Assembly (NCBI GenBank): GCA_000004985.1
Contig: GG738916.1
Length of the DNA stretch: 64,000 nucleotides
Strand: one strand, 5' to 3'
From: Naegleria gruberi
Lineage: Eukaryota
Part shown: one piece after another, positions 15,719-63,927 of the stretch
Layout of the letters: every line of letters starts with the position of its first letter
Numbering within the stretch: the stretch's first letter is position 1
Notes under the pieces: model-generated
What the model was told of the DNA's origin: nothing
Seen by the model: only the letters and a program-made list of their open reading frames with translations
Databases searched by the model: none
Made by a program: the position numbers and the translations under genes

Positions 15719-16190
15719 CCCAAACCCAAACCCAAACCCAAACCCAAACCCAAACCCAAACCCAAACCCAAACCCAAACCCAAACCCAAACCCAAACCCA
15801 AACCCAAACCCAAACCCAAACCCAAACCCAAACCCAAACCCAAACCCAAACCCAAACCCAAACCCAAACCCAAACCCAAACCCAAACCCAAACCCAAACC
15901 CAACCCCAACCCAAACCCAAACCCAAACCCAAACCCAAACCCAAACCCAACCCAAACCCAAACCCAAACCCAAACCCAAACCCAAACCCAAACCCAAACC
16001 CAAACCCAAACCCAAACCCAAACCCAAACCCAAACCCAAACCCAAACCCAAACCCAAACCCAAACCCAAACCCAAACCCAAACCCAAACCCAAACCCAAA
16101 CCCAAACCCAAACCCAAACCCAAACCCAAACCCAAACCCAAACCCAAACCCAAACCCAAACCCAAACCCAAACCCAAACCCAAACCCAAA
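15719..16190 (+). repeat. Interstitial telomere-type array (CCCAAA)n, about 78 units, same orientation as the terminal array; unit irregularities at ~15901 and ~15950.
   Basis: Direct read. The irregular units cause the PN/QT/PK and GL/VW/GF phase changes seen in the ORF track. Confidence 0.9.
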
Positions 16191-16197
16191 CCTGATA

Positions 16198-35610: not shown

Positions 35611-38600
35611 TTATTCATAAACCTCAGCAAATTCAGTAGCACTTCTTCCAAATATTTCAGGAGTGTACATTTCCTCTGCCTTTACACTAGGAATCACAAA
35701 TGAACCAATGGATGTTGCTCTGGCAATATATGTGAATTGATGAGTGCCTTCCCATAATAGTGAAGTAAATGCTTCGACTCTTTCATCTCTAATGTTGTGA
35801 TGTTCGTACCAGATTGGATTAATCCACCAACACCAAGAATTTGGTTTGTTGGTTTTACTTCCATTGAGAGAGGAAATCTCTGGAGTTCCTTTCAATTCTG
35901 GATTGATTGGTTCGAGACCAGCTGGTAAATAGTCAACTAAGGCAACATGATATCTACGACTGGTATTTGTCATGGTCAACTTGACACGAATCAATTCTCC
36001 AGCTTTAAATCTCCAAGTATTCTTTTCCTTATCAAATGAAACATGAGAAGAATCAGTAACATGTTCATAGGTTCTTTGAACTTCAAATCCATAATCCAAT
36101 GCATCAACAAGTAAATTCTTTGGTGCATATTCCATTCCAATTCTGTAATATAATCTTCCAGGACCTTGCTTTGAGATGGCAAGAGTCTTTTTTTCATATT
36201 CCAACAAACTCATTGGAATATTTAATTGATTTTCATCCTTGGATCTTCCCTTGAACACTTGTTCTCCACAATAATCTTCACCCAACCACATGTTGGCCAC
36301 AAAATCTGGTGTCACACCTTCGAAAACATTAAAATAGGTATTGAGAGCAAGAAGAATGAAAACGTTTTCTTGAGTATTTCCCCAACGACCCTTCTTTTTG
36401 TGAGCTAGCAATCCCTTAACAATCTTTGGAATGAGATAATTGTTAGGAGTAATATTAATAAGAGCTTCTAAACAAATTCCGTCAGTTCTTCTGTCACTAT
36501 GTAACATGACATGTTTAGTTGACAGTACATCACCATAACTTGTAATAAAGTTGGCAGTTTGTGCAGTTTCATTAACATGCTTATTCAAATGTTCAATGAT
36601 TTGATTGGCTGAGGCGGTAGCTCTATTATTATTAGATAAATACATGGCAGTGGCCAACCAAGCTAAATGTTCAAAGTTTCCATTCAATTTGTAGGTTTGG
36701 TAATGTTTTTCAGCTAAATTCTTGACCTGAGAATCACCCAACAAAGCCAAAGCATAATATGCATAAGCCTTGGTAGATTTAATAGATTCCTCAGAATAAT
36801 CAAGTTCAATACAATAATTTTCAATACTTCTCAATACTGGAATTAATTTTGAGAGGGTTCCTTCATTCACTGAATATCCTGCAATCTTGGCACGTCCAAG
36901 CATGTGGCCAACATGGCAGGTCACATATGGACTGATACGATAATTATTATTATAGGACCAGTATCCAAATCCACCATTTGGAAATTGTCTTGCTTCTAAG
37001 GCAGTAAGAGCATGTTTGATATTATTATCGATTGCTTCCTTACTAGGAATTTGTTGTGAATTGAATGCAAGAAGAATGTCTTTCAAAGAAATAATGGAAA
37101 GTAATCTGCTGGAAATTTGTTCACTGCATTCGTATGGATAATTGTACAAGTATAAGAAACTGTCAGTGAGTGAAGAAAGTGCAGTAGAGCTAGTAGAAAT
37201 CTTTAAGCCTCCAAATTGAGTGAAAACATTTGGAGGAGCCTTAACAGGTTGGAAAACAGAAGAATCTCCATCCATTTCACCATAAGTGGCAAATGCTTCA
37301 GTAGTGGCAGGTGTAAATACTCTAATTTCCTTTTCAATGGCATCAGAAAAGTTAATTCCGATTGTGGCAATCGACACACCAATTTGGAATCGTGCAATAC
37401 CAACTCTATCGGTTGACATTGGGAATCTCAATTCAGTTCTTCCTAAAGCTGGAATCCTAATCTTGAGGCCCTTCTTTGACTCATCCAACAAGTTCAAATT
37501 GGTAAAATTGATAGCTGCATTTACCTCCAAATTCAATTGAGTTTGATTTTGTAAAACACATGTAAATTCTACTCTATCACCAAAGTTCAAGAATCGAGGA
37601 AGAGATGGCCTAATTGACAATGGAAGTTGAGCTATCATGGAAGATTCATGAATTCCAAAATTCCAATCACCCTTAACAGCAACTGCTGTGATTCTATATT
37701 TTGTAAGATTGTCAGGTATCTTGAATTTTACACTTGTGAATCCTTCTGCATTTGTCTTACTAGATGGACTAAAGATTGCCAATGGATTGAAATTTGATCT
37801 CACTGCAATCATTGGTTGTTCAGGTACTGGCATACCAGCAAATGCTGCACTACCAAACGCAAAGCCACCATACGATTGGACTGAAGGAGAAAATGGATCA
37901 GATGCTGGCATTTGTTGCATTTGCATTTGCATCGGATAACTATGATGATTATGAGAAAATGAAAAACCTGAGTTAGTAAGAGAAGTTCCAAACAGGGAAT
38001 TGGTGGTGGTATAAGTTTGCTCCTCTTGGAATATTATTCCCTGATAGCTCTTTACAAATACATTATTTCTGAGAGAGTAAGGTTGATAAGTAGTGTTGTA
38101 TGGTGTAACAAAGGTATCTAGTGGATTACTGATGGAGTAGTTGGTGAGAGAGAGTACAGCTTCGTCCACAGCAATGATACACACTTCACATCCTTCTTGT
38201 GGAGCTCCAGTCATTGGATCCTTAACTAGTACACTGATACTGGTTTCACTTCCAGGTGTCAAATATTCTCTTTCAGGTTTAGATTCCACAGATAAGCTTC
38301 TTGAATTTTTTGAAACCTCAATATCACAAGAACCTGATGAAAAAGCAGGTTGCTTTGGTAAATCTAAAACAGTGCCCGTGGCATCTACTCTTGATTCAGA
38401 ACCTGAGAGTTCAACACTTACTTTAACATTTGGAATGTGATCTAGAGTAATTCCAAGCTCAAATTCTGTATAACCAAGATCAGCATCAATTTGAATTGGA
38501 TATTGACGATGAATTCCATGAAGTTGTGTAAACAGTACGCCTTCAGCTTTGGAATCAAATGGAGATTGAATCAGAATCTTGGCCTTTTCTCCAACTTGAT

Positions 38601-41511
38601 ATTCTTTCTTATCTGTAAGAAGAGTGAGTTGTTTCTTCCCTATCAAAACTTCTCTTGCAGAAAATCCAGTGATAAATAAACTTGTTGATGCTTTGTTTGT
38701 TTGTCCTGTAGCAGAATCAACAATACCAATAGAAAATGAATAGTTGCCACCTTTTTCAAATTTGACAGAATATTCAATTGGTTCATTTTCCGATATGAAA
38801 ACCTTATCAATAACTTCAACAGTTTCAGAAGCATATTTGTATCCTTTCTTGACATTCACTTGAGTAGTGACTTTCAATTGGATTGGTATTCCTGAAACCA
38901 AATTTCCGTCAATATCTGTAACAATCAAAGAGGCAGTTATAGGAACATTTTGTTTTGCAAATTCTCGACTCAACTTGATTCCACAATAATATTTGCAAGG
39001 GTGAACGAGGAAGGATGCTGATGATGTCATTGTTTGTCTATTGATATCTTGAACTGTAGATTCTACAGAAATGGTGATTGGAGCCTTCTTTACACGATTA
39101 CTCTCCTCAAATGCAATTGCAATTTGGTGTTCTCCATCACCATCTGTTGTACCTTCAAAGGTTGTAACACCAACATTTGAGTTGGCCGAGAAAAGTTGCT
39201 TTACAAAGTCGTTTCCAAAGAAATTGAGAGACGTTCCAAAAGTGTATGAGGATTGATTTGGAGGAGTGTAGCTGCTGGTAGTTTGTTTGATAGTGTATCT
39301 GCATTTGGCTCCTGAAATTCCACCTCCACTATAGTAATCTGCATTGGTTGTGCAGATGGCAGATCCACCAACAATGTAATTTCCAGGTGATACTGAAGAT
39401 TTTGATTTGAACTCTGGAGTTCTAAATTCTTGAACCTTGAATGCGTGATTTGATGAAAAATCAGAGAACATAATTGTGTGACTTCCCAAGTTGGCATTAT
39501 CTGGAACTTTGAATTGAATATTAAATGTACCATCAGAGCTTAATTGTACTTTGCCTGATTCGTATCGTTGTTGTCTGGCATCTAAAATTGTGTAAGTGGA
39601 AGAATTTGTTGGAATATCAATGCTAAAAACATTTCCTTTCAAATTAAATCTTCTTACGTAACCCTTAATAGAGACAGTCTCACCTGGCTTGTACAATCCT
39701 CTATCATTGAAAATATGGGCAGTTATTTGAGGAGTAAACGCATTTCTGGCATAATATACATCTGGAATGAAACATGTGTCATGTCCATGAGTTGCTATGG
39801 CATTCAAAGAGCAGGAACCATAACTATTTCCAGAAATATTTTTAATACAACCAATTCCAGTTTTTGCATCTGGTGAACTTGTTGTATGATTATTAAAGTG
39901 GAAGGTCACATTGTCCTTAATAATACTGCCATCAATTAAGGAATTTACCCAATAGTAGGCAATTGAAGAGTTATTATCAATAACGCAATCAACTGCAATC
40001 TTCGTTGTTTGAATCCATGAAACATAACCAGGTCGAGTGTTCCATGAAGCTTTCCAGCTATTCATTTCAGCTTCAACAACCACCAACAATTGGCCAATGC
40101 TCTCAGATGGATACTGAAGATATTCTTGAAGATTAATTTCAGTTTCGACTGGTTCGTCAACTTCTCCCTTTGTTGATATGATTCCATCATAAACTAGAGT
40201 GCCAGGATATTTAATGGTAGCGTCTGTTTGGAATCTGAGTACTGAATGATTGAACATCGTGGATGGATTGACCTGGTAAACCCTGCAACGTACAGCATCC
40301 AAATTTACAGTTACAATAGGATAAGATGGACTTGGATTCAATGTTGGATCCATAACAATAACACCGGTTTTGAATGCTTGGATTGATTGGCGTGCACCTT
40401 TAACTTGAAATTCTACAGTAAGGTCTTTAAGCACTTGCCCCCAAACATCGACAAGATTCTTTACGAAAACCTTGTATGTTGTTCTTCCTTTGATTTTACC
40501 TGAGATGCTAATACTATTTCCAAATGGATTTAATGACATCCGTTCAATTGGTGGTGAAACAGTGAACATATTTTCTGTCAATTTTTCCAAATCAATGCCA
40601 GTTGTGAATTGCAAACTAAAAGCTTGCATTGGGAGCTCTCCTCCATACTTTTTGATAAACTCGAACGCAGGATAATTATTTACAGTGGTGATATGAGAAT
40701 GTAGTGTTGGCAATGGTCCTTCTGTTCCTGTAACTCCGCTCATGATACTCACCTTTACAGAGTTTCCAAAAAGATAATTACTAACATGGAACCACAAATG
40801 TCGTTTCTCTGGAGCATTTTTGAGTTTTCGTTTGTAAGCTTCATAAGTATGATAATCCCTCTTCTCCAAGTCGAAATCTTTGAGTGCTTTGAGGATGAAC
40901 TCCTGTACGAGAGGATTTGAACTCTTGCCGTCATGAATTAAGGTGGCTAAATTACTATTCTCATTAATTGAAATGAATTTGATAACTTCACTTGGATCAA
41001 TGTCTTGATCGAATTCTAAATAGTAAATTGGAACTTCATTCAGAGGATGAATAGTGTGATCAGAAGGAAGGGAGCTGATTAAAGATAATCTTGGAGTTTC
41101 AAAACTAAATGTCAAATCTTCTTTCAAAATTCCTCCAATTTCTGATTTGGTTCCCTTCTTAACAGTGACTGTATACTTGGTGGACATGTCAAATCTGTAT
41201 TTGGCTGCGTAAACTAGAGTTTTTGTGCCCAACCATTTGAATTGACCTCCTTTTTTTGGAAGAGGAGAAACATCCACTGGAACTGTATCCATTACTTCAT
41301 CAATACTGCTGACAGGAACCATCGGTTGAGAGAAGGTAATAGTGATCGATGGCACTGAACGATCCAACACACCTTCAGGCGAATAACGAATCACACTCAA
41401 CTCTGATCCTAAAATCTTTTCCTCCTCTTCAATCAATTCTTTTGGTTTCTCCAAATTCATTTCCGGTGGAAAGGGTACATTATTGATCTCTGCAGTAATT
41501 GGTGCTTTCAA
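35611..41511 (-). CDS. Alpha-2-macroglobulin / thioester-containing-protein family, long (1966 aa) intronless form with a CxEQ-type motif. The true N-terminus is uncertain (first in-frame ATG gives MNLEKPKEL at ~41460).
   Basis: LYLYNYPYECSEQISSRLLSIISL resembles the A2M thioester region (GCGEQ in animal forms; CSEQ here). Size and the ..NGGFGYWS.. region fit the family. No N-terminal signal peptide visible. The ORF-track start is a TTG. Confidence 0.6.
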   Translation of the reverse strand: MKAPITAEINNVPFPPEMNLEKPKELIEEEEKILGSELSVIRYSPEGVLDRSVPSITITFSQPMVPVSSIDEVMDTVPVDVSPLPKKGGQFKWLGTKTLVYAAKYRFDMSTKYTVTVKKGTKSEIGGILKEDLTFSFETPRLSLISSLPSDHTIHPLNEVPIYYLEFDQDIDPSEVIKFISINENSNLATLIHDGKSSNPLVQEFILKALKDFDLEKRDYHTYEAYKRKLKNAPEKRHLWFHVSNYLFGNSVKVSIMSGVTGTEGPLPTLHSHITTVNNYPAFEFIKKYGGELPMQAFSLQFTTGIDLEKLTENMFTVSPPIERMSLNPFGNSISISGKIKGRTTYKVFVKNLVDVWGQVLKDLTVEFQVKGARQSIQAFKTGVIVMDPTLNPSPSYPIVTVNLDAVRCRVYQVNPSTMFNHSVLRFQTDATIKYPGTLVYDGIISTKGEVDEPVETEINLQEYLQYPSESIGQLLVVVEAEMNSWKASWNTRPGYVSWIQTTKIAVDCVIDNNSSIAYYWVNSLIDGSIIKDNVTFHFNNHTTSSPDAKTGIGCIKNISGNSYGSCSLNAIATHGHDTCFIPDVYYARNAFTPQITAHIFNDRGLYKPGETVSIKGYVRRFNLKGNVFSIDIPTNSSTYTILDARQQRYESGKVQLSSDGTFNIQFKVPDNANLGSHTIMFSDFSSNHAFKVQEFRTPEFKSKSSVSPGNYIVGGSAICTTNADYYSGGGISGAKCRYTIKQTTSSYTPPNQSSYTFGTSLNFFGNDFVKQLFSANSNVGVTTFEGTTDGDGEHQIAIAFEESNRVKKAPITISVESTVQDINRQTMTSSASFLVHPCKYYCGIKLSREFAKQNVPITASLIVTDIDGNLVSGIPIQLKVTTQVNVKKGYKYASETVEVIDKVFISENEPIEYSVKFEKGGNYSFSIGIVDSATGQTNKASTSLFITGFSAREVLIGKKQLTLLTDKKEYQVGEKAKILIQSPFDSKAEGVLFTQLHGIHRQYPIQIDADLGYTEFELGITLDHIPNVKVSVELSGSESRVDATGTVLDLPKQPAFSSGSCDIEVSKNSRSLSVESKPEREYLTPGSETSISVLVKDPMTGAPQEGCEVCIIAVDEAVLSLTNYSISNPLDTFVTPYNTTYQPYSLRNNVFVKSYQGIIFQEEQTYTTTNSLFGTSLTNSGFSFSHNHHSYPMQMQMQQMPASDPFSPSVQSYGGFAFGSAAFAGMPVPEQPMIAVRSNFNPLAIFSPSSKTNAEGFTSVKFKIPDNLTKYRITAVAVKGDWNFGIHESSMIAQLPLSIRPSLPRFLNFGDRVEFTCVLQNQTQLNLEVNAAINFTNLNLLDESKKGLKIRIPALGRTELRFPMSTDRVGIARFQIGVSIATIGINFSDAIEKEIRVFTPATTEAFATYGEMDGDSSVFQPVKAPPNVFTQFGGLKISTSSTALSSLTDSFLYLYNYPYECSEQISSRLLSIISLKDILLAFNSQQIPSKEAIDNNIKHALTALEARQFPNGGFGYWSYNNNYRISPYVTCHVGHMLGRAKIAGYSVNEGTLSKLIPVLRSIENYCIELDYSEESIKSTKAYAYYALALLGDSQVKNLAEKHYQTYKLNGNFEHLAWLATAMYLSNNNRATASANQIIEHLNKHVNETAQTANFITSYGDVLSTKHVMLHSDRRTDGICLEALINITPNNYLIPKIVKGLLAHKKKGRWGNTQENVFILLALNTYFNVFEGVTPDFVANMWLGEDYCGEQVFKGRSKDENQLNIPMSLLEYEKKTLAISKQGPGRLYYRIGMEYAPKNLLVDALDYGFEVQRTYEHVTDSSHVSFDKEKNTWRFKAGELIRVKLTMTNTSRRYHVALVDYLPAGLEPINPELKGTPEISSLNGSKTNKPNSWCWWINPIWYEHHNIRDERVEAFTSLLWEGTHQFTYIARATSIGSFVIPSVKAEEMYTPEIFGRSATEFAEVYE

Positions 41512-41552
41512 CGATTTTTCTCTTTGATTAATTCATAATATAAGATATTAAA

Positions 41553-43301
41553 TTATTTAAATTGTAAATTATTATTGTAAAAGAAAACAAACCTCATGAA
41601 GAAATCCTTGCAATCATCCACTTCAGATGCAATATTCGGAAGTCTATTCAATAATTGGCTAGTTTCATTTGCTGACAAACTTTCAATATTTGATGACACA
41701 TCACCACCACCTGATGATGATCCAATATTTACTTTTTCCATCATCATGATCAATGATCGGGTTGTGTCCTCTGCAGTAGGTTCTCTAACAGTCAACTTTA
41801 AGCCATTATTTATGTTGTTCATCATGGAAGAAGCACCACCAAACAAATTAACACCACCGAAAGGAGGAGTTGTTGGAGATAGTTGTGATGGATAGCCACC
41901 ACCAAATAAAACAGAATTTACAGAGGGTAGTTGTGAAAACATTTTTTTGGTATTTTGTTTTGTGAGATGGTGAACCTTTTGAAGGTAATGGTGAACTTGA
42001 AAGTGTACGAAATAGAAGATTAACAGAACATTTTTAATATCCTCTAACAATTGTTTCAATTCCTCACTGCCATCAAATGGTTCGTCTCTGTAGCCAAGTT
42101 GCAGGTCAAAGTTGCCCATTTTCATCAAGCCATGAAACCAACTGTTTGTGAAAAAGTACAATCTTGGAATAGAATATAAAATATTGAGATAGGTTTGGTG
42201 TCGTGTGAATGTAGTTTCGTCTGGAATGGTAACATTTATACCATTCTTTTCCCAAATTGGGACGATAATTTCTATTACTTTGGATCTGACTTGTTTATCA
42301 TCAAATGATGTTTCCATATCTGAAACGGGCATGTCCTTGTTCAGCATTTCTAAAAGACAGGCCCAATGAGCTAGAGTTTCACACTCCTTTACAACTGAAG
42401 TGAATCTGCTTTGTGGCCAATCAAGAACGGCAGATACCTTTGCTGTATCTAAGGATGCATTGCTTTTGATCATTATATTCGATGCATTCAAATCACAATG
42501 ACAAAATTGATAGACATTAGGATCTTCCACTCCATCATCTGTATGCAACAGTTTGGATTTCAAATCAAGAAGAGGTTCTGAATGAAGAGAAACAAAATCA
42601 AGATAATGAGGATAATGAACTTGTTCTCCAGTATTCGAAATTTGATTCAGAGTGAAATCTATTTGCTCAATGACCATTTCTTTCAAATTCTTGAAAGGTC
42701 CCAATGGAGCACAATCACCAACAATTACTCCAAGAGAACTCTTTTCACTTCCCAACAAGGATCCAACTTGATAATCATCCTTCTTATTCTCGGAATTTGT
42801 GTGTAATTTTCCAACAATAACGATCAACTCCTCAAGAAGCTGAACTTTCTGTTTGATTGAGAGAAATCTCCAAGAGTTTGCCAAAGTTTGTCCTTTTGCC
42901 CTCTCTTGCAAAATATATTCGCAACCAAGAGGGGACTCTTCAGCATTATCTGAATAGGAAACAATTTTAGGTGTTGGTATTCCAGCTTTCTCAGCAAATA
43001 GAATGCATTTGACTTCATTCCGAACAGAAATTCCTTTCCAGAAAGTGTGACAATTGGAAATTCGCAAAACCAGTTCAACACCTTCGAGAGTTCCCTCTCT
43101 AACAGCTCGGATCATGAATATTGAATTGATGACTCCTCCAGATTCTTCAAACTTATAAAATTCTTTGAAAATCAAATGGTGTTGTTGTAAGAGAAGAGGA
43201 AGAGTATGTGTGAAATTCTCCAACAAATTATTCATTATTTGATGGTATTTAGTTTCTTGTTCAGAGAAGGTGGGATGGTGGAGAGTAATGCGAGATGACA
43301 T
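41553..43301 (-). CDS. Protein-kinase-like phosphotransferase (APH / choline-ethanolamine-kinase / CHK-like fold) with a low-complexity C-terminal tail
   Basis: Catalytic-loop-like FCHCDLNASNIMI (HxDxxxxN Brenner motif). Ends 41 bp before the A2M-like ORF on the same strand. Confidence 0.5.
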   Translation of the reverse strand: MSSRITLHHPTFSEQETKYHQIMNNLLENFTHTLPLLLQQHHLIFKEFYKFEESGGVINSIFMIRAVREGTLEGVELVLRISNCHTFWKGISVRNEVKCILFAEKAGIPTPKIVSYSDNAEESPLGCEYILQERAKGQTLANSWRFLSIKQKVQLLEELIVIVGKLHTNSENKKDDYQVGSLLGSEKSSLGVIVGDCAPLGPFKNLKEMVIEQIDFTLNQISNTGEQVHYPHYLDFVSLHSEPLLDLKSKLLHTDDGVEDPNVYQFCHCDLNASNIMIKSNASLDTAKVSAVLDWPQSRFTSVVKECETLAHWACLLEMLNKDMPVSDMETSFDDKQVRSKVIEIIVPIWEKNGINVTIPDETTFTRHQTYLNILYSIPRLYFFTNSWFHGLMKMGNFDLQLGYRDEPFDGSEELKQLLEDIKNVLLIFYFVHFQVHHYLQKVHHLTKQNTKKMFSQLPSVNSVLFGGGYPSQLSPTTPPFGGVNLFGGASSMMNNINNGLKLTVREPTAEDTTRSLIMMMEKVNIGSSSGGGDVSSNIESLSANETSQLLNRLPNIASEVDDCKDFFMRFVFFYNNNLQFK

Positions 43302-43411: not shown

Positions 43412-46400
43412 CTAATATACATCGAGATCATCATCATCACTAAATTCACTACTGTCATATCCAGCAAGCCTGTTTGTTGAAAACACTGGTTCGAAACCAA
43501 TTAGAGAATCCTCCAAGACAATAACCAAATGAACAGTAAATTGATAATAGGTATTGCCATTTTCTTTGGTGATGATTTTAGGTTTGTAAATACCTTGTTC
43601 GAATATGTTAGATTTGCCTCTTATAGCGATATTTTCATAACCAAATATCAAAAAGTTAAGATCGTGAGTTTCGTATAGTGGTTTGTTAATTTTGGAAATA
43701 GCAATTGATTCCTCATCCAAAGTTTCATTAGCAATGAGGTAACTCAATTTTAAATGTGGAGATGAGCTCAAATACGTTCCAAAGTCAATGTAAAAATATC
43801 CTTCAACATTTGGTCGTATGTATAGAATGTGCTTAGATCCAAATATATCCATTTCTTGGCTGGCAAATGCATGGTCTGATAGATCAGTGGTAGTAATAAC
43901 TCTAACGTTTTTGTACTGAACTAGCCTATTCTTGTGAATTTTTCTTGCAAGCCAAGCAGATTTTGTTATCAACGCTTTCACTTCAGGTTCTTGAATAGTT
44001 TTATCCCCCAATAAAGAGGTAATTTCTTCCACTGTGTAATACTTGCTCTCAACTATTTTCATACAAAGAATGAATGGCTCTTCTGGGAAGGAGACATGGT
44101 TATTGTAAGAATAGTCAGACTGTGGTATGAATTTGTTGGTAAACACATGGAAATTGGTCATTCCACTTGGGAAAATAATACAACAGTGGGCTATGGTATG
44201 ACCAAATAATATTCCAGATTCTAATTTTGGCTTAGAAAGTATTAGTTTGAAGGTAACTGATTCATCAATTGAAAGTAGCCATTCATGCCCTTCAATGGTG
44301 AATTTTTTAGTCTTGAACTCGTTAGGTGAAATGTTAATCCTAGTATATTCACTTTCTGCAAAATGAGGAGAAAATAATCTCACCAATTCATCAATAGATA
44401 ATTCCATTTGTTCAGATGAGGAAGAAGGAATAGCTACTCTTTGAACATAATTATCTACGTAATCATTTTCAATAGCCGGCTGGTGTTGTACTATATTATT
44501 TTGGATTTCATCCAACTTATCCAGGTCGTTAGCATTAGGAAATGAAGGAGTTTTGATCAAGTATGTTTGGACAACTAGTTGGAAGAATGATTCGAGCAAT
44601 CTTACATACTCAACGGATATTCCAGAACGGCAGAAAAGATCCATCACACGTTCGATAATTGATAAACTATAGTAATCCAATAGTCTTAATTTTCCCTCCA
44701 CAAATAACTTCATCACTTCTTGGCAAACAGGATTGAGTCTAATAAGACCAACAAATGGCAGATATTTCAAAACTTGTTCATAACGGTTATGATTCAACAA
44801 TATTATTGCCACATCTGAAAATCTGCTGAAAAATCGATGAAGATTTTTAGAAAGACAGTCCAAAATTTCCTCTCTATGCCCATCCATAAACTCATCTGAA
44901 ATTTGGTGAATAATTCTATCTATAAGATATCTTTGAGTATTTCTTTGAGTACTTCTGTCGTTTTGGTTTTCAGTATAGGTGTTAATAATGTGTTTGTAAA
45001 AGAACCATGTAGTTTTACAATCAGCACCACTCAAATAGCCTCTAGATATAAATTCAACAAGTGTGAAATACAACTCTGTCAGTTTCCCGGAAGATGTTAA
45101 TAATTCAATTTGAGATTTCATCTTTGTTATGATAGTTTCTGGTGTACCATCTAAATTTCCTAAATTATTCTTGACAAATAAATGTAAACGTTCAACTGGA
45201 GGTTGCTCAAACTCAGAATAGATAGATGAAAATACAAATCTCTTTTCATATTCGAGCAATGTAATTTCACCACAATCTCTAATTTTTGGACAGTCATCAA
45301 TAAGAACAGTTGTTAAATTGACCATCTTTCTTTCTAGGGGACCAATAATAGAATTTGTTAAATGCTCTGAATATCTGATGATAAGTGAGCTTATTGGAGG
45401 ATTGTCATCCATATTCTCAATCATTTCTATTAAATCTTCATCCCTAAGATTGTGTATAACTAAATTCAAAGTCTTTAGAAATGGAAGTCTAGCTATTTGT
45501 TTTAAAATATTAGAGGATGAATGAAGATTTTCTATTTTCAAATGTTGCAAAGAATTTGGGAGCTCTATTATCACATCCTCATCATGGTTATTCAATGTCA
45601 TTTTTCTCAAGTTGGAAAATTCTCTCAAATCCAAAGCTTCTACTATATTATTTGACGTTTCCAATTCTTCTACAGTGTGCTTATTGGGACACATATCGAT
45701 TAATTTTTCATCAAATGAATATCCCTTTAGAACTTTCAATTTCACTGTGTTTGATTCTTTGAAAAATTTAAATACGTCTAAAAGGTAACTAGAAGGTAAA
45801 TCTATAACCATTTTTTCAAGTAGTGGACAGTTCTTTAGGCATAATAATGGGCTCGACACTATATCGTCATAAATATATTCATCACATAGGGATATCTCCT
45901 TGAGAGAAGGACTGCATAGAAAGACAATTAAACTCATAATTGCCTTGCTCGATAAACAATTCTTAATTTTCAAAGTGTGTAATTTTGAAAACATTACAGG
46001 GGGAAAAGTCTTTTTAGATTCATAGTTGGTATCTTCGTCGAAAGTGAAATCAATACTCTTCAAGTTGGTCAATCCACTGAGTGCACTGTGCAGCAGATCA
46101 ATATTCTTGTCTCTAGAAAAATTAATAGTCAAGTTTTCTAAATATTTTAAACTTTGCAAAGGCTTCAAGTTGAACCTGCTTGCAGTAAATTGGAGAGTAT
46201 TAACATTTGTTAAAAATTGAGTAGATTCTTGGAGAGGGAAAGTTTGAGCATCTACACCTCTCATTATAATACTATTTAAATCCAAATGCTTTAACAGTTT
46301 TGAAATACTACTCCACGATATTATTTCTGGTAACACAATTTCTTTCAAATTCTTACATTGGCTCAATGGTTCTAATATTTGGTTATTGGCCGTGAATCCA

Positions 46401-46972
46401 AACATGAAATACTCCAATGAAGGTGGAAACTGTATACCAGCAATGCCAACAAAACCTTCATCAACACCCTTCACAAAGGATAATCGTTTCAACTTTTTAA
46501 AAGGGGTAAAGTCTAGATGGATAGGTTTTGCCCAAAATTGTGGCAAAACCAACTCGGTCACTGTGTTGGCCAAATCACCACCTTCTGCCAACTCTTCAAC
46601 AAATGATGGCTTTACCTTGATCAATTTATGACAATCCAAATATTCAATATTATTTAAATAACTCAAGCCTTTGATCAAACCATCACCTTCCAAGTCGTAG
46701 AACCTTTGGTTGGCCTCCTCTAAATTTTGTAGAGTGATGGACCGAAGTTTGGGAAGTTTACTCAGGTAGGTTTGTGCAATCCGAATGAATTGCTGATCAA
46801 ACATTCGGAAATGTATTAAATATGAAGTTTTTGTGCATTTCCAATAATCCCAAATAAAGTGATCAAATTCGGAACACACCAACCTAAGATGAATCAAGGA
46901 ATTGTGAGGAATAAATGCTAGAATACTGTGAGTGAGTACTTCCGGGGGTAAAAGATGAAGTAATCCACTCAT
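43412..46972 (-). CDS. F-box-like / leucine-rich-repeat protein (1186 aa, intronless)
   Basis: N-terminal LLPPEVLTHSILAFIPHNSLIHLRLVC (F-box-like), followed by many L-x-x-L-x-L-x-x-N/C-type repeats (LKTLNLVIHNLRDEDLIEMI etc.). Confidence 0.5.
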   Translation of the reverse strand: MSGLLHLLPPEVLTHSILAFIPHNSLIHLRLVCSEFDHFIWDYWKCTKTSYLIHFRMFDQQFIRIAQTYLSKLPKLRSITLQNLEEANQRFYDLEGDGLIKGLSYLNNIEYLDCHKLIKVKPSFVEELAEGGDLANTVTELVLPQFWAKPIHLDFTPFKKLKRLSFVKGVDEGFVGIAGIQFPPSLEYFMFGFTANNQILEPLSQCKNLKEIVLPEIISWSSISKLLKHLDLNSIIMRGVDAQTFPLQESTQFLTNVNTLQFTASRFNLKPLQSLKYLENLTINFSRDKNIDLLHSALSGLTNLKSIDFTFDEDTNYESKKTFPPVMFSKLHTLKIKNCLSSKAIMSLIVFLCSPSLKEISLCDEYIYDDIVSSPLLCLKNCPLLEKMVIDLPSSYLLDVFKFFKESNTVKLKVLKGYSFDEKLIDMCPNKHTVEELETSNNIVEALDLREFSNLRKMTLNNHDEDVIIELPNSLQHLKIENLHSSSNILKQIARLPFLKTLNLVIHNLRDEDLIEMIENMDDNPPISSLIIRYSEHLTNSIIGPLERKMVNLTTVLIDDCPKIRDCGEITLLEYEKRFVFSSIYSEFEQPPVERLHLFVKNNLGNLDGTPETIITKMKSQIELLTSSGKLTELYFTLVEFISRGYLSGADCKTTWFFYKHIINTYTENQNDRSTQRNTQRYLIDRIIHQISDEFMDGHREEILDCLSKNLHRFFSRFSDVAIILLNHNRYEQVLKYLPFVGLIRLNPVCQEVMKLFVEGKLRLLDYYSLSIIERVMDLFCRSGISVEYVRLLESFFQLVVQTYLIKTPSFPNANDLDKLDEIQNNIVQHQPAIENDYVDNYVQRVAIPSSSSEQMELSIDELVRLFSPHFAESEYTRINISPNEFKTKKFTIEGHEWLLSIDESVTFKLILSKPKLESGILFGHTIAHCCIIFPSGMTNFHVFTNKFIPQSDYSYNNHVSFPEEPFILCMKIVESKYYTVEEITSLLGDKTIQEPEVKALITKSAWLARKIHKNRLVQYKNVRVITTTDLSDHAFASQEMDIFGSKHILYIRPNVEGYFYIDFGTYLSSSPHLKLSYLIANETLDEESIAISKINKPLYETHDLNFLIFGYENIAIRGKSNIFEQGIYKPKIITKENGNTYYQFTVHLVIVLEDSLIGFEPVFSTNRLAGYDSSEFSDDDDLDVY

Positions 46973-62570: not shown

Positions 62571-63927
62571 CTATTCCATTTCGGCACTCTTTTTCAATTT
62601 ACCAAGAGCAGTCGAAATTAAATCCAAATTATTTTGAACAGTCTTGGTGAGGGCAATCAATTTGGCTTCACTATCCAAGACGTCAACTGTATTGGTATAT
62701 GGATTATACTTGACAACAAATTCCTTTTCCAAATTATTCATTGTGAAACCCTTAATGAGCTCTTTACAAGATTCTAAACTATCTACAACATAATACATTG
62801 GTTGGTAGTGAGTAATTGGATAGGATCTCTCAGCTGCCTCTGTCGGAACAAAGTTTCTATACTCTGGTGGAGGTACCTTACCATTTCTATCCTTTCCAGT
62901 GCAACTGAATTCCAATTCACCAAAAGAACTCAACAAGCCAGCTCCATAAGCTTTCAATTCATTATTCTCTTTCACCAAGCCAAATTCTAAACAGTACCAA
63001 TACAATCTAACGAGTCTATCAATGTCAGCATCTGAGGCACCCAGAGAGGCAAGACCAATTTGTTGGGAGAATTCAGCAAAATCTGGATCTGCCAACATGA
63101 TTGAATGTCCCAACAATTCATGAACTACATCAGGTTCTGGTGTGTAAAATGGAGAACTGTGATGTCTAATATATTGTGTGCTGTGAAAAACTCTAAAGGC
63201 CAATCCATTCAAGAAATCTCTAGCCGACAACAAGCCAGCAACTGGACGATATCTGAAACCAGTGACTTCTACAAGGAAATCATTGACATCTTGCAATTGA
63301 GGAATATTTTCAGCTCTAAATCCACAATTTTCCTGGAATAACGGAAACAAGTAATTGTACTGTTCACAGGCATACTTTGGATAGAGTTCTGTCAATTTTT
63401 CATAAACTACCTTCCATGTATTATTCTCATTTTGTGTGTATTGGATTCTTGGAATTGGTTCTCCGTGTTTGTAATTAATGGCAATGTCAGAAATCATTTT
63501 TCTACGATCTCTATATTCTTTATCATGGAAACCTGGATGATCACTTTCTAAATCACCTCCAGCTTCAAGTGTTTGTCTATATAATTGGTCAATATTTCCA
63601 AAAAATTCAACAAGAAACAAACCTTGTGAAAAAATCAATATCCGAAATCTTTCTTGGAAACCAAGGCAATTCCTCCCCACCAAGGAATTTCACCTTCTCT
63701 GCCTTTCCATTCTCAATCATATCCTTAATGGCACTATCAACATCCTCTTTACTTGCCTGTTCATCAATATCTACGTGGAAATTAAACACACGTGTGGAAA
63801 TCTTGGAAGGTTTCGACTCAATCTTGGTCAAATTAATATTATGCTTGGAAAAGGTATCGAGGGATGATTTGAGAGCACCAACTCGATGTGGTAAAGTAAT
63901 TAACAAGGAACGATACTTGGAGGACAT
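62571..63927 (-). CDS. Biopterin-dependent aromatic amino-acid hydroxylase (phenylalanine-4-hydroxylase-like) with N-terminal ACT regulatory domain; 2 exons 63927..63623 and 63576..62571 (46-nt intron)
   Basis: Exon 1 carries the ACT-like region (ITLPHRVGALKSSLDTFSKHNINLTKIESKPSK). Exon 2 carries the catalytic motifs PEPDVVHELLGHSIMLADPDFAEFSQQIGLASLGASD and KAYGAGLLSSFGEL. Splicing gtttgt...tatatag gives DIDFFTRQTLEAGGDLESDHPGF, colinear with PAH [23 protein letters not shown]. Confidence 0.85.

Follow-up and report, generated by a model that had tools for sequence, protein, structure and literature searches.

Adjacent genes for an APH-like phosphotransferase and a probable two-exon, bacterial-type thioester A2M in Naegleria gruberi

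To our knowledge, every protein of the A2M/TEP superfamily (alpha-2-macroglobulins and related thioester proteins) characterized so far works in a compartment other than the cytosol, be it plasma, haemolymph or the periplasm. The bacterial members ECAM and Salmonella A2M (SaA2M) are periplasmic lipoproteins of ~1650 residues that carry the motif CLEQ, and we know of no functional characterization of the longer bacterial A2Ms of ~2000–2100 residues. In protists, the COG2373-like proteins of Dictyostelium (DdiCPRas2, EAL60755.1) have been read as products of horizontal gene transfer from prokaryotes (Elias and Novotny 2008, PMC2430557). Here we describe a gene for a bacterial-type A2M and a neighboring gene for an APH-like kinase, both on the minus strand of a 64,000-nucleotide stretch of the Naegleria gruberi genome (contig GG738916.1 of assembly GCA_000004985.1, hereafter the window). 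We consider it likely that the public annotation mis-delimits two adjacent same-strand genes, one encoding an APH-like phosphotransferase of the stand-alone type and the other a two-exon, bacterial-type thioester A2M of 2086 residues. The corrected two-exon A2M gene model is the main concrete result of this analysis. It would make both public N. gruberi models wrong, as the A2M model would be short of 137 N-terminal residues and bears a misleading name, and the kinase model would take in A2M exon 1 while missing the kinase's own N-terminus.

Reading frame, intron and first exon of the A2M gene

The A2M open reading frame (ORF) occupies 35611..41511 on the minus strand and has 1966 codons when counted from a TTG, with its first ATG at codon 18. 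A gap of 41 bp separates it from the APH-like kinase ORF at 41553..43301 (minus strand). The A2M ORF is 100% identical to the NCBI/JGI model P0001 (1949 residues, Met at 41460), whose database name, 'ras GTPase domain-containing protein', is odd for this protein, as a Pfam search of the A2M protein detected no Ras or GTPase domain. The same search matched bMG10 (E = 1.2e-32), A2M_BRD (8e-20), A2M (3.4e-15) and MG2 (1e-14) as well as Big_5, the MG2, A2M_BRD and A2M matches all exceeding curated cut-offs, and gave no match to A2M_recep or TED_complement; NCBIfam returned nothing for either the A2M or the kinase protein. The array of MG domains together with a bait-region domain places the protein in the A2M/TEP superfamily. 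Its bacterial-type C-terminal MG10 domain lies at 35656..36090, and the thioester motif CSEQ, within YPYECSEQ, at 37117..37128. Of the 120 listed homologues, 118 have a CxEQ motif, most commonly CSEQ (57 sequences), and all nine eukaryotic ones keep it. A first-pass annotation of this DNA had proposed a CSEQ-bearing A2M ORF of 1966 codons, uninterrupted over 5.9 kb, 41 bp behind an APH-like kinase ORF. The ORFs and their Pfam domains were found as described, and the long coding exon (exon 2, 35611..41521, ending in a TAA at 35613..35611) is indeed unbroken.

Upstream of this exon we place a 71-nt spliceosomal intron (41522..41592; GTTTGT...AAAG). Splicing from 41592 to 41522 joins ...DFFM-R(AG|A)-EKSLKAP... 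in frame in phase 2, as we checked on the sequence, and removes the TAA at 41555..41553 that ends the annotated kinase ORF. The GC content of the intron is 12.7%, compared with about 36% in the flanking coding sequence. The comparative evidence that this intron is real is strong, since DFFMR|EKSLKAP, the sequence across the splice, is collinear with its counterparts in eight eukaryotic proteins and in bacteria (DFAKRxGSLPAP) and since two other Naegleria genomes carry an intron at the same place. In N. lovaniensis a 95-nt intron (GTAAGT...CAG) splits the same Arg codon in the same phase, and in a Naegleria-like organism from SRR29240419 (Naegleria sp., L006) a 272-nt intron (GTAGGT...ACAG) does so as well. 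In Willaertia, in a homologue from a eukaryotic metagenome (P0009) and in bacteria the junction is contiguous. Because Willaertia and P0009 lack the intron and because it is AT-rich, it would have been gained within Naegleria after the gene was acquired. The first-pass annotation had proposed such a GT-AG intron at 41530-41600, ~8 nt off its true coordinates. It had also equated the donor with a verified one in a phenylalanine hydroxylase gene. The same hexamer does follow ...CACAAG at 63622. The gene in question is of the Biopterin_H (phenylalanine-hydroxylase) type (62571-63927, minus strand, E = 1e-149) with an apparent first exon from the ATG at 63927, and its putative donor reads AAG|GTTTGTTTCTTG at 63622, the donor hexamer being identical to that of the A2M intron. 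When the kinase ORF and a 351-residue query across the spliced junction were used in homology searches, only the genomic model and unrelated fragments were returned, no transcript sequence among them, and JGI metagenome contigs contained no match to the exact 32-nt pattern of the exon-exon junction.

It follows that A2M exon 1 (41593..41942, from the probable ATG to ...CKDFFM plus the AG of the split Arg codon) is formed by the last ~130 codons of the 'kinase ORF' and that the public A2M model lacks its N-terminal part. The exon-1 stretch that begins at NGLKLTVREPT... and reaches ...NRLPNIASEVDDCKDFFMR can be aligned to the N-terminal ends of eight eukaryotic homologues and, in bacterial ones, to the region that follows the signal peptide. 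The eukaryotic proteins share the N-terminal pattern ...L-x-V-REP...L-x-x-x-E...L-x-RLP......D-x-KDFF-x-REKSLKAP..., which in the window corresponds to the last ~80 codons of the 'kinase ORF' plus the 17 codons that precede the annotated A2M Met; the exception is the SRR29240419 protein (P0004), whose ORF call begins inside the intron and so does not contain the pattern. In ~110 bacterial homologues the counterpart NGLQFRLSEG...LSxxETxxLLKRIPPIK..DDxxDFAKRxGSLPAPKTG runs unbroken after the signal peptide.

The most likely start of the A2M protein, judged from sequence context and homology, is the ATG at 41942 (MFSQLPS...), which sits 47 codons upstream of the conserved NGLKLTVREP and is directly preceded by caaaacaaaataccaaaaaaATG, the sequence that closes the spacer between the two genes. 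The start context AAAAAATG occurs 22 times in the window; 12–14 of these occurrences are the first ATG of a long ORF, and only two, at 41942 and 45811, lie deep inside an ORF. Exon 1 of the SRR29240419 organism opens with the homologous MFLPNN..PPIFGQIGLYGS..IKITVREP. Initiation at 41942 would give an N-terminal peptide MFSQLPSVNSVLFGGGYPSQLSPTTPPFGGVNLFGGASSMMNNINNGLK and a protein of 2086 residues, within the 2001–2118 residues of the homologues.

The site at 45811 (minus strand) lies in ORF 43412..46972, a 1186-residue F-box-like ORF, where 392 open codons precede AAAAAATG. This ATG might serve as an internal or alternative start, or the ORF might be another one that two genes share.

Two genes or one fused protein

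The kinase gene occupies 42027..43301 (minus strand), with codons 1–425 conserved. The full ORF of 582 codons includes the NCBI 560-residue 'predicted protein' P0121, which starts at the second Met, 22 codons late. Since the upstream segment (43235-43301, minus strand), which includes HHPTFSEQE, is conserved in the Willaertia orthologue, the true start is the ATG at 43301. Pfam detects APH (PF01636) at E = 1.4e-12 (48.3 bits against a cut-off of 23.2). Residues H268, D270, N275, D294 and W295 of the HxDxxxxN and DW motifs are conserved as in 51–53 of 53 relatives, and P296 stands where relatives have a near-invariant E/D after DW. We considered whether a K-to-R change in strand beta-3 marks a dead kinase and rejected this, as R80 is the majority residue among relatives (29 R, 20 K). 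With kinase residues 1–452 as the query, HMMER was run exhaustively against 1.84 billion representative proteins and found 286 relatives, and the 150 listed are all ≤945 residues long. The nearest are eukaryotic, from Willaertia and the malawimonad Gefionella. The best match is P0126 of Willaertia magna, a stand-alone intronless gene for 461 residues, flanked by acetyltransferase and RCC1-like genes with no A2M nearby. BLASTP aligns kinase residues 7–425 to P0126 residues 19–458 at 30–33% identity, and P0126 ends three residues later.

Kinase homology thus stops at codon 425, 28 codons before the A2M start. The spacer between the two (41943..42026, minus strand; LLIFYFVHFQVHHYLQKVHHLTKQNTKK), which runs from codon 425 to Met454 and encodes, for example, NVLLIFYFVHFQVHHYLQK, has no homology to kinase or A2M relatives. 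It contains only 5 G in 84 nt, its GC at codon position 2 is 0.07 compared with 0.30–0.47 in genes, and it is open in all three frames. The simplest reading is that it is probably an 84-nt intergenic region or A2M leader that lacks an in-frame stop by chance. As it has no in-frame stop, the kinase frame stays open across A2M exon 1 and is closed only inside the intron, and for that reason exon 1 looked like a kinase tail. A scan of the junction region for sigma-70 promoters and terminators gave nothing useful, that model not being applicable to a eukaryote.

Several points weigh against two separate genes. The chance that the spacer is open by accident is only about 0.2 given its composition, and the chance of the two genes sharing a frame is 1/3. 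The kinase ORF has no stop of any kind before the TAA at 41553, so its mRNA must either retain or end in the intron (giving a 560- or 582-residue product) or run into A2M, which is awkward for a simple picture of two independent genes. An extra intron or frameshift giving the kinase its own stop was considered and rejected, as the only GT..AG candidates in the spacer are ~34 nt and too short. In addition, where A2M translation starts, how efficiently the intron is spliced and where the kinase mRNA ends are all inferred.

The main alternative is a true kinase-A2M fusion, as the first-pass annotation had suggested: a single transcript beginning upstream of 43301 would be spliced at 41592/41522 and yield a 2539-residue protein, an A2M with an APH-like kinase domain at its N-terminus, after a recent, N. 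gruberi-specific loss of the kinase stop codon. A single open frame does run from the ATG at 43301 through the splice to the A2M stop, the kinase lacks a stop of its own, its domain is intact with the catalytic motifs kept, and the window A2M is a recent duplicate of the paralogue P0002, so that a rearrangement had its opportunity. However, the sequence that the intron joins to A2M is A2M's own N-terminal region, which has its own start with a canonical context and a homologous N-terminus at 41942; the spacer has a non-coding composition; and kinase homology ends exactly where the stand-alone orthologue ends. Nor is there a fused relative: none of the 150 listed kinase relatives (of 286) combines APH with A2M, PF01636 occurs in none of the 120 listed A2M homologues, and no kinase neighbors A2M at the five other loci examined. 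On this comparative evidence the fusion is not an established architecture and we regard it as unlikely; the kinase is most likely a separate neighbor gene and not part of the A2M protein. The open spacer offers a natural experiment in how gene fusions can arise through stop-codon loss.

We think it improbable that the open frame reflects a base error in the assembly that removed the kinase stop, or that the kinase is a recent stop-loss pseudogene. Several spacer codons are one substitution away from a stop (TTA, TAT, TAC and four CAA), there is an out-of-frame TAA at codon 427, the point at which the orthologue ends, the residue after DW has changed to P, and the scaffold has many gaps. Against this, no gap lies near the locus, out-of-frame stops come about every 14 codons so that the TAA at codon 427 is uninformative, and 425 codons are intact with conserved motifs and the identity to the orthologue given above.

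It is highly improbable that the public annotation is correct as it stands, with an unspliced kinase reading to the TAA at 41553 and an intronless 1949-residue A2M from Met 41460. These are the deposited models P0121 and P0001, and an intron-retaining or intron-polyadenylated mRNA would be the simplest route to a kinase stop codon. They would, however, drop about 137 residues whose conservation extends from bacteria to Naegleria, among them those of the 17 in-frame codons just upstream of Met 41460 (EKSLKAPITAEINNVPFPPE), they leave the intron at an identical codon and phase in two other Naegleria genomes unaccounted for, and the kinase model omits a conserved N-terminus. We therefore retain the reading of two adjacent genes, with A2M exon 1 reassigned from the kinase.

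Origin of the A2M, its bait region and predicted site of action

Eukaryotic homologues of the window A2M are an N. gruberi paralogue (P0002, 74% identity), single proteins from N. fowleri (P0003), the SRR29240419 organism (P0004) and N. lovaniensis (P0005), three from Willaertia magna (P0006–P0008) and one from a JGI eukaryotic metagenome contig (P0009). The next relatives are proteins of Acidobacteria and Myxococcota, with about 36% identity over the full length. In a neighbor-joining analysis with 37 bacterial sequences the nine eukaryotic proteins form one clade with 100/100 bootstrap support, and the window A2M is sister to P0002. In a sequence search of the PDB only bacterial A2M chains (YfhM/ECAM and Salmonella A2M) reach E<1e-3. 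An AF2 model of residues 1245–1966 (the last 722 residues, spanning MG7, the thioester domain and the C-terminal MG; mean pLDDT 81.9) has ECAM (7e-34) and SaA2M (1e-33) as its top Foldseek matches in the PDB, followed by CD109, A2ML1, C5, TEP1 and C3, with identities of 18–19% for ECAM and SaA2M versus 11–15% for the animal proteins; global TM-scores are only 0.37–0.60 because the domain arrangement differs.

The protein is thus bacterial-type, having bMG10 and standing closer to bacterial than to animal members, as the first-pass annotation had held from the CxEQ motif. That annotation's further view, that kinase and A2M were acquired together as a foreign module, is not supported: kinases are absent beside A2M at the five other loci examined, the relatives of the kinase are eukaryotic, and A2M is old, multi-copy and compositionally ameliorated. 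Its GC of 0.367 and GC at third codon positions (GC3) of 0.274 are typical of neighboring host genes (GC3 0.22–0.36), so that the suggested flanking comparison reveals no foreign composition, and the flanking genes are ordinary eukaryotic ones (UDPGT, F-box, SIR2, RGS, SET). Given the single eukaryotic clade, the host-like GC and GC3 and the eukaryotic flanks, we conclude that the A2M gene is bacterial-derived but old in Heterolobosea, and neither a recent transfer nor contamination nor a gene transferred with the kinase. That it is instead an animal-type TEP, an ancestral eukaryotic gene or bacterial contamination can hardly be credited: fold searches do match CD109, A2ML1, C3, C5 and TEP1 with high probability, but among PDB chains only bacterial A2Ms are detectable by sequence, the protein has bMG10 and Big_5 and is collinear over its full length with about 110 bacterial proteins, and contamination is at odds with a spliceosomal intron, host-like GC3, eukaryotic neighbors and orthologues in four other heterolobosean assemblies.

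We propose that a bacterial A2M of ~2000 residues with Big_5, MG and bMG10 domains entered an ancestor of Naegleria and Willaertia, and that after its uptake the signal peptide would have been lost, an intron gained within Naegleria, the gene duplicated and the host composition taken on. It would be a clean example of the domestication of a bacterial gene through signal-peptide loss, intron gain and paralogue diversification.

To look for a signal peptide we used the 11-residue Kyte-Doolittle maximum within the first 50 residues, a crude test and not a dedicated predictor. The window A2M has a maximum of 1.03 and the eukaryotic homologues range from -0.11 to 1.57, compared with a bacterial median of 2.59; 85% of the bacterial homologues have a maximum of ≥2.0, and none of the nine eukaryotic proteins has a hydrophobic N-terminus. 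By this test the window A2M has no signal-peptide-like N-terminus and no lipobox, nor a transmembrane-like segment anywhere, in agreement with the first-pass annotation, which had seen no signal peptide. Lacking a signal peptide, the protein probably functions within the cell or is exported along a non-classical pathway.

The bait region (37801..38043, minus strand; 81 residues) is a hypervariable segment flanked by conserved anchors. Homology with ECAM and SaA2M, whose structures and biochemistry are established, predicts a suicide protease trap, in which a protease would cut the bait (38043..37801) and so release a conformational change that would expose the Cys-Gln thioester of CSEQ (37128..37117) for covalent linkage to the protease. 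The window bait is rich in FG, Q and M (..SLFGTSLTNSGFSFSHNHHSYPMQMQMQQMP..GGFAFGSAAFAG..). Among the nine eukaryotic homologues the bait is hypervariable, with lengths of 64–100 residues; one Willaertia paralogue is likewise rich in FG, Q and M, and another Willaertia copy is acidic and Met-rich. The baits of P0002, P0003 and P0004 are extraordinarily cysteine-rich (for example CCRFARACSSCANCCFEDCMNECCCCDDLCCQCACCGDGC). The window bait and that of Willaertia P0007 have a common FG…P(M/I)QMQMQ(Q)MP motif, yet fall in different subclades of the tree.

The metagenomic homologue P0009 (L004 8001-14096; JGI metagenome 3300062347, contig Ga0606064_0016), encoded by a single uninterrupted ORF of 6096 nt, carries a complete ubiquitin exactly in the bait, between the conserved anchors (…LIYIKTLTGK…LHLVLRLRGG|AP…). 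This ubiquitin would be a bait for deubiquitinases and would point to a cytosolic trap. A metagenome scan for more ubiquitin-bait A2Ms found only ordinary ubiquitin genes, and a literature search on ubiquitin baits found nothing specific.

We recognize in these sequences a heterolobosean clade of bacterial-type thioester A2Ms without signal peptides. The missing hydrophobic N-terminus, taken with the ubiquitin bait, suggests that they may act inside the cell. Such a clade, conserved and duplicated in free-living and pathogenic amoebae including N. fowleri and equipped with hypervariable baits, would point to a protease-trapping defence that is intracellular or unconventionally exported. A bolder joint reading is that these proteins are cytosolic thioester traps with fast-evolving baits directed against intracellular proteases and that the N. 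gruberi locus in addition encodes a real 2539-residue kinase fusion; as part of it, the ubiquitin bait ending in LRLRGG suggests that deubiquitinases of intracellular bacteria or of giant viruses would be captured. We hold this combination to be quite unlikely.

Some further observations concern the loci themselves. In N. lovaniensis an M1-family aminopeptidase gene (Peptidase_M1/ERAP1_C; L001 6988-9730) lies directly upstream of A2M on the same strand, and this placing of a protease beside a protease trap is probably coincidental. The only 'intron' in the Willaertia P0006 model (L002 13578-13659) skips 82 nt near the 3' end and has non-canonical-looking borders; as the paralogues have continuous coding sequence there, the model may have introduced it artificially to get around an in-frame stop or a sequencing error. 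In the window, TTTGGG-type telomere-like hexamer arrays occur at 2-311 ((AACCCA)52), at the very start, and at 15719-16192 ((CCCAAA)79), where the array abuts a 2.5-kb assembly gap, and about 12 kb of the first 20 kb are N in four large gaps. The arrays and gaps may mark a scaffold end, a subtelomere or a scaffolding join.

Comparison with known systems

With the animal A2M, C3, TEP and CD109 proteins, the window A2M shares the superfamily fold (Foldseek probability 1.0) and the logic of bait and thioester. The animal proteins differ in having GCGEQ, in being secreted with signal peptides and in their low identity (11–15%), and no animal thioester protein was found at E<1e-3 in the PDB sequence search with the window A2M.

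The proteins of solved structure that match best in both sequence and fold are E. coli ECAM/YfhM and Salmonella SaA2M (PDB 5A42, 4ZIQ, 4U48). Like them, the window A2M has an MG array, a bait domain, a CxEQ thioester domain and bMG10, and the mechanism, bait cleavage followed by thioester capture, is presumed to be alike. Unlike them, it has 2086 residues, an N-terminal region containing Big_5, the motif CSEQ and no signal peptide or lipobox, and its gene is eukaryotic and spliced; in the modelled region it is only 18–19% identical to ECAM. Operon linkage with pbpC (PBP1c), a mark of the bacterial type, has no meaning in a eukaryotic genome; the neighbors in the window are UDPGT and APH/F-box genes.

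The Dictyostelium COG2373/A2M-like proteins are a precedent for a bacterial A2M-like gene in a protist (PMC2430557), and that paper (Elias and Novotny 2008) was the only specific item found in a literature search on Naegleria A2M or thioester proteins, which turned up no paper about the Naegleria genes themselves. DdiCPRas2 differs from the window A2M, which has no detectable Ras or GTPase domain, by an inserted, circularly permuted RAS domain. It was probably from the Dictyostelium proteins that the Naegleria model took its database name, 'ras GTPase domain-containing protein'.

The closest counterparts are the A2Ms of ~2000–2100 residues, annotated as 'Ig-like domain-containing' or YfaS, of Acidobacteria (Pyrinomonadaceae, Blastocatellia) and Myxococcota (for example Labilithrix AKJ09_05650). 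They are collinear with the window A2M over the full length at 35–37% identity, rising to 46–50% in the C-terminal 722 residues, and share its Pfam set, the motif ECSEQ and the N-terminal NGLxFRLSEG...LLKRIPPIK...DFAKRxGSLPAP. They differ in having a hydrophobic signal peptide and no intron, and the eukaryotic proteins stand apart from them as a separate clade (100/100 bootstrap).

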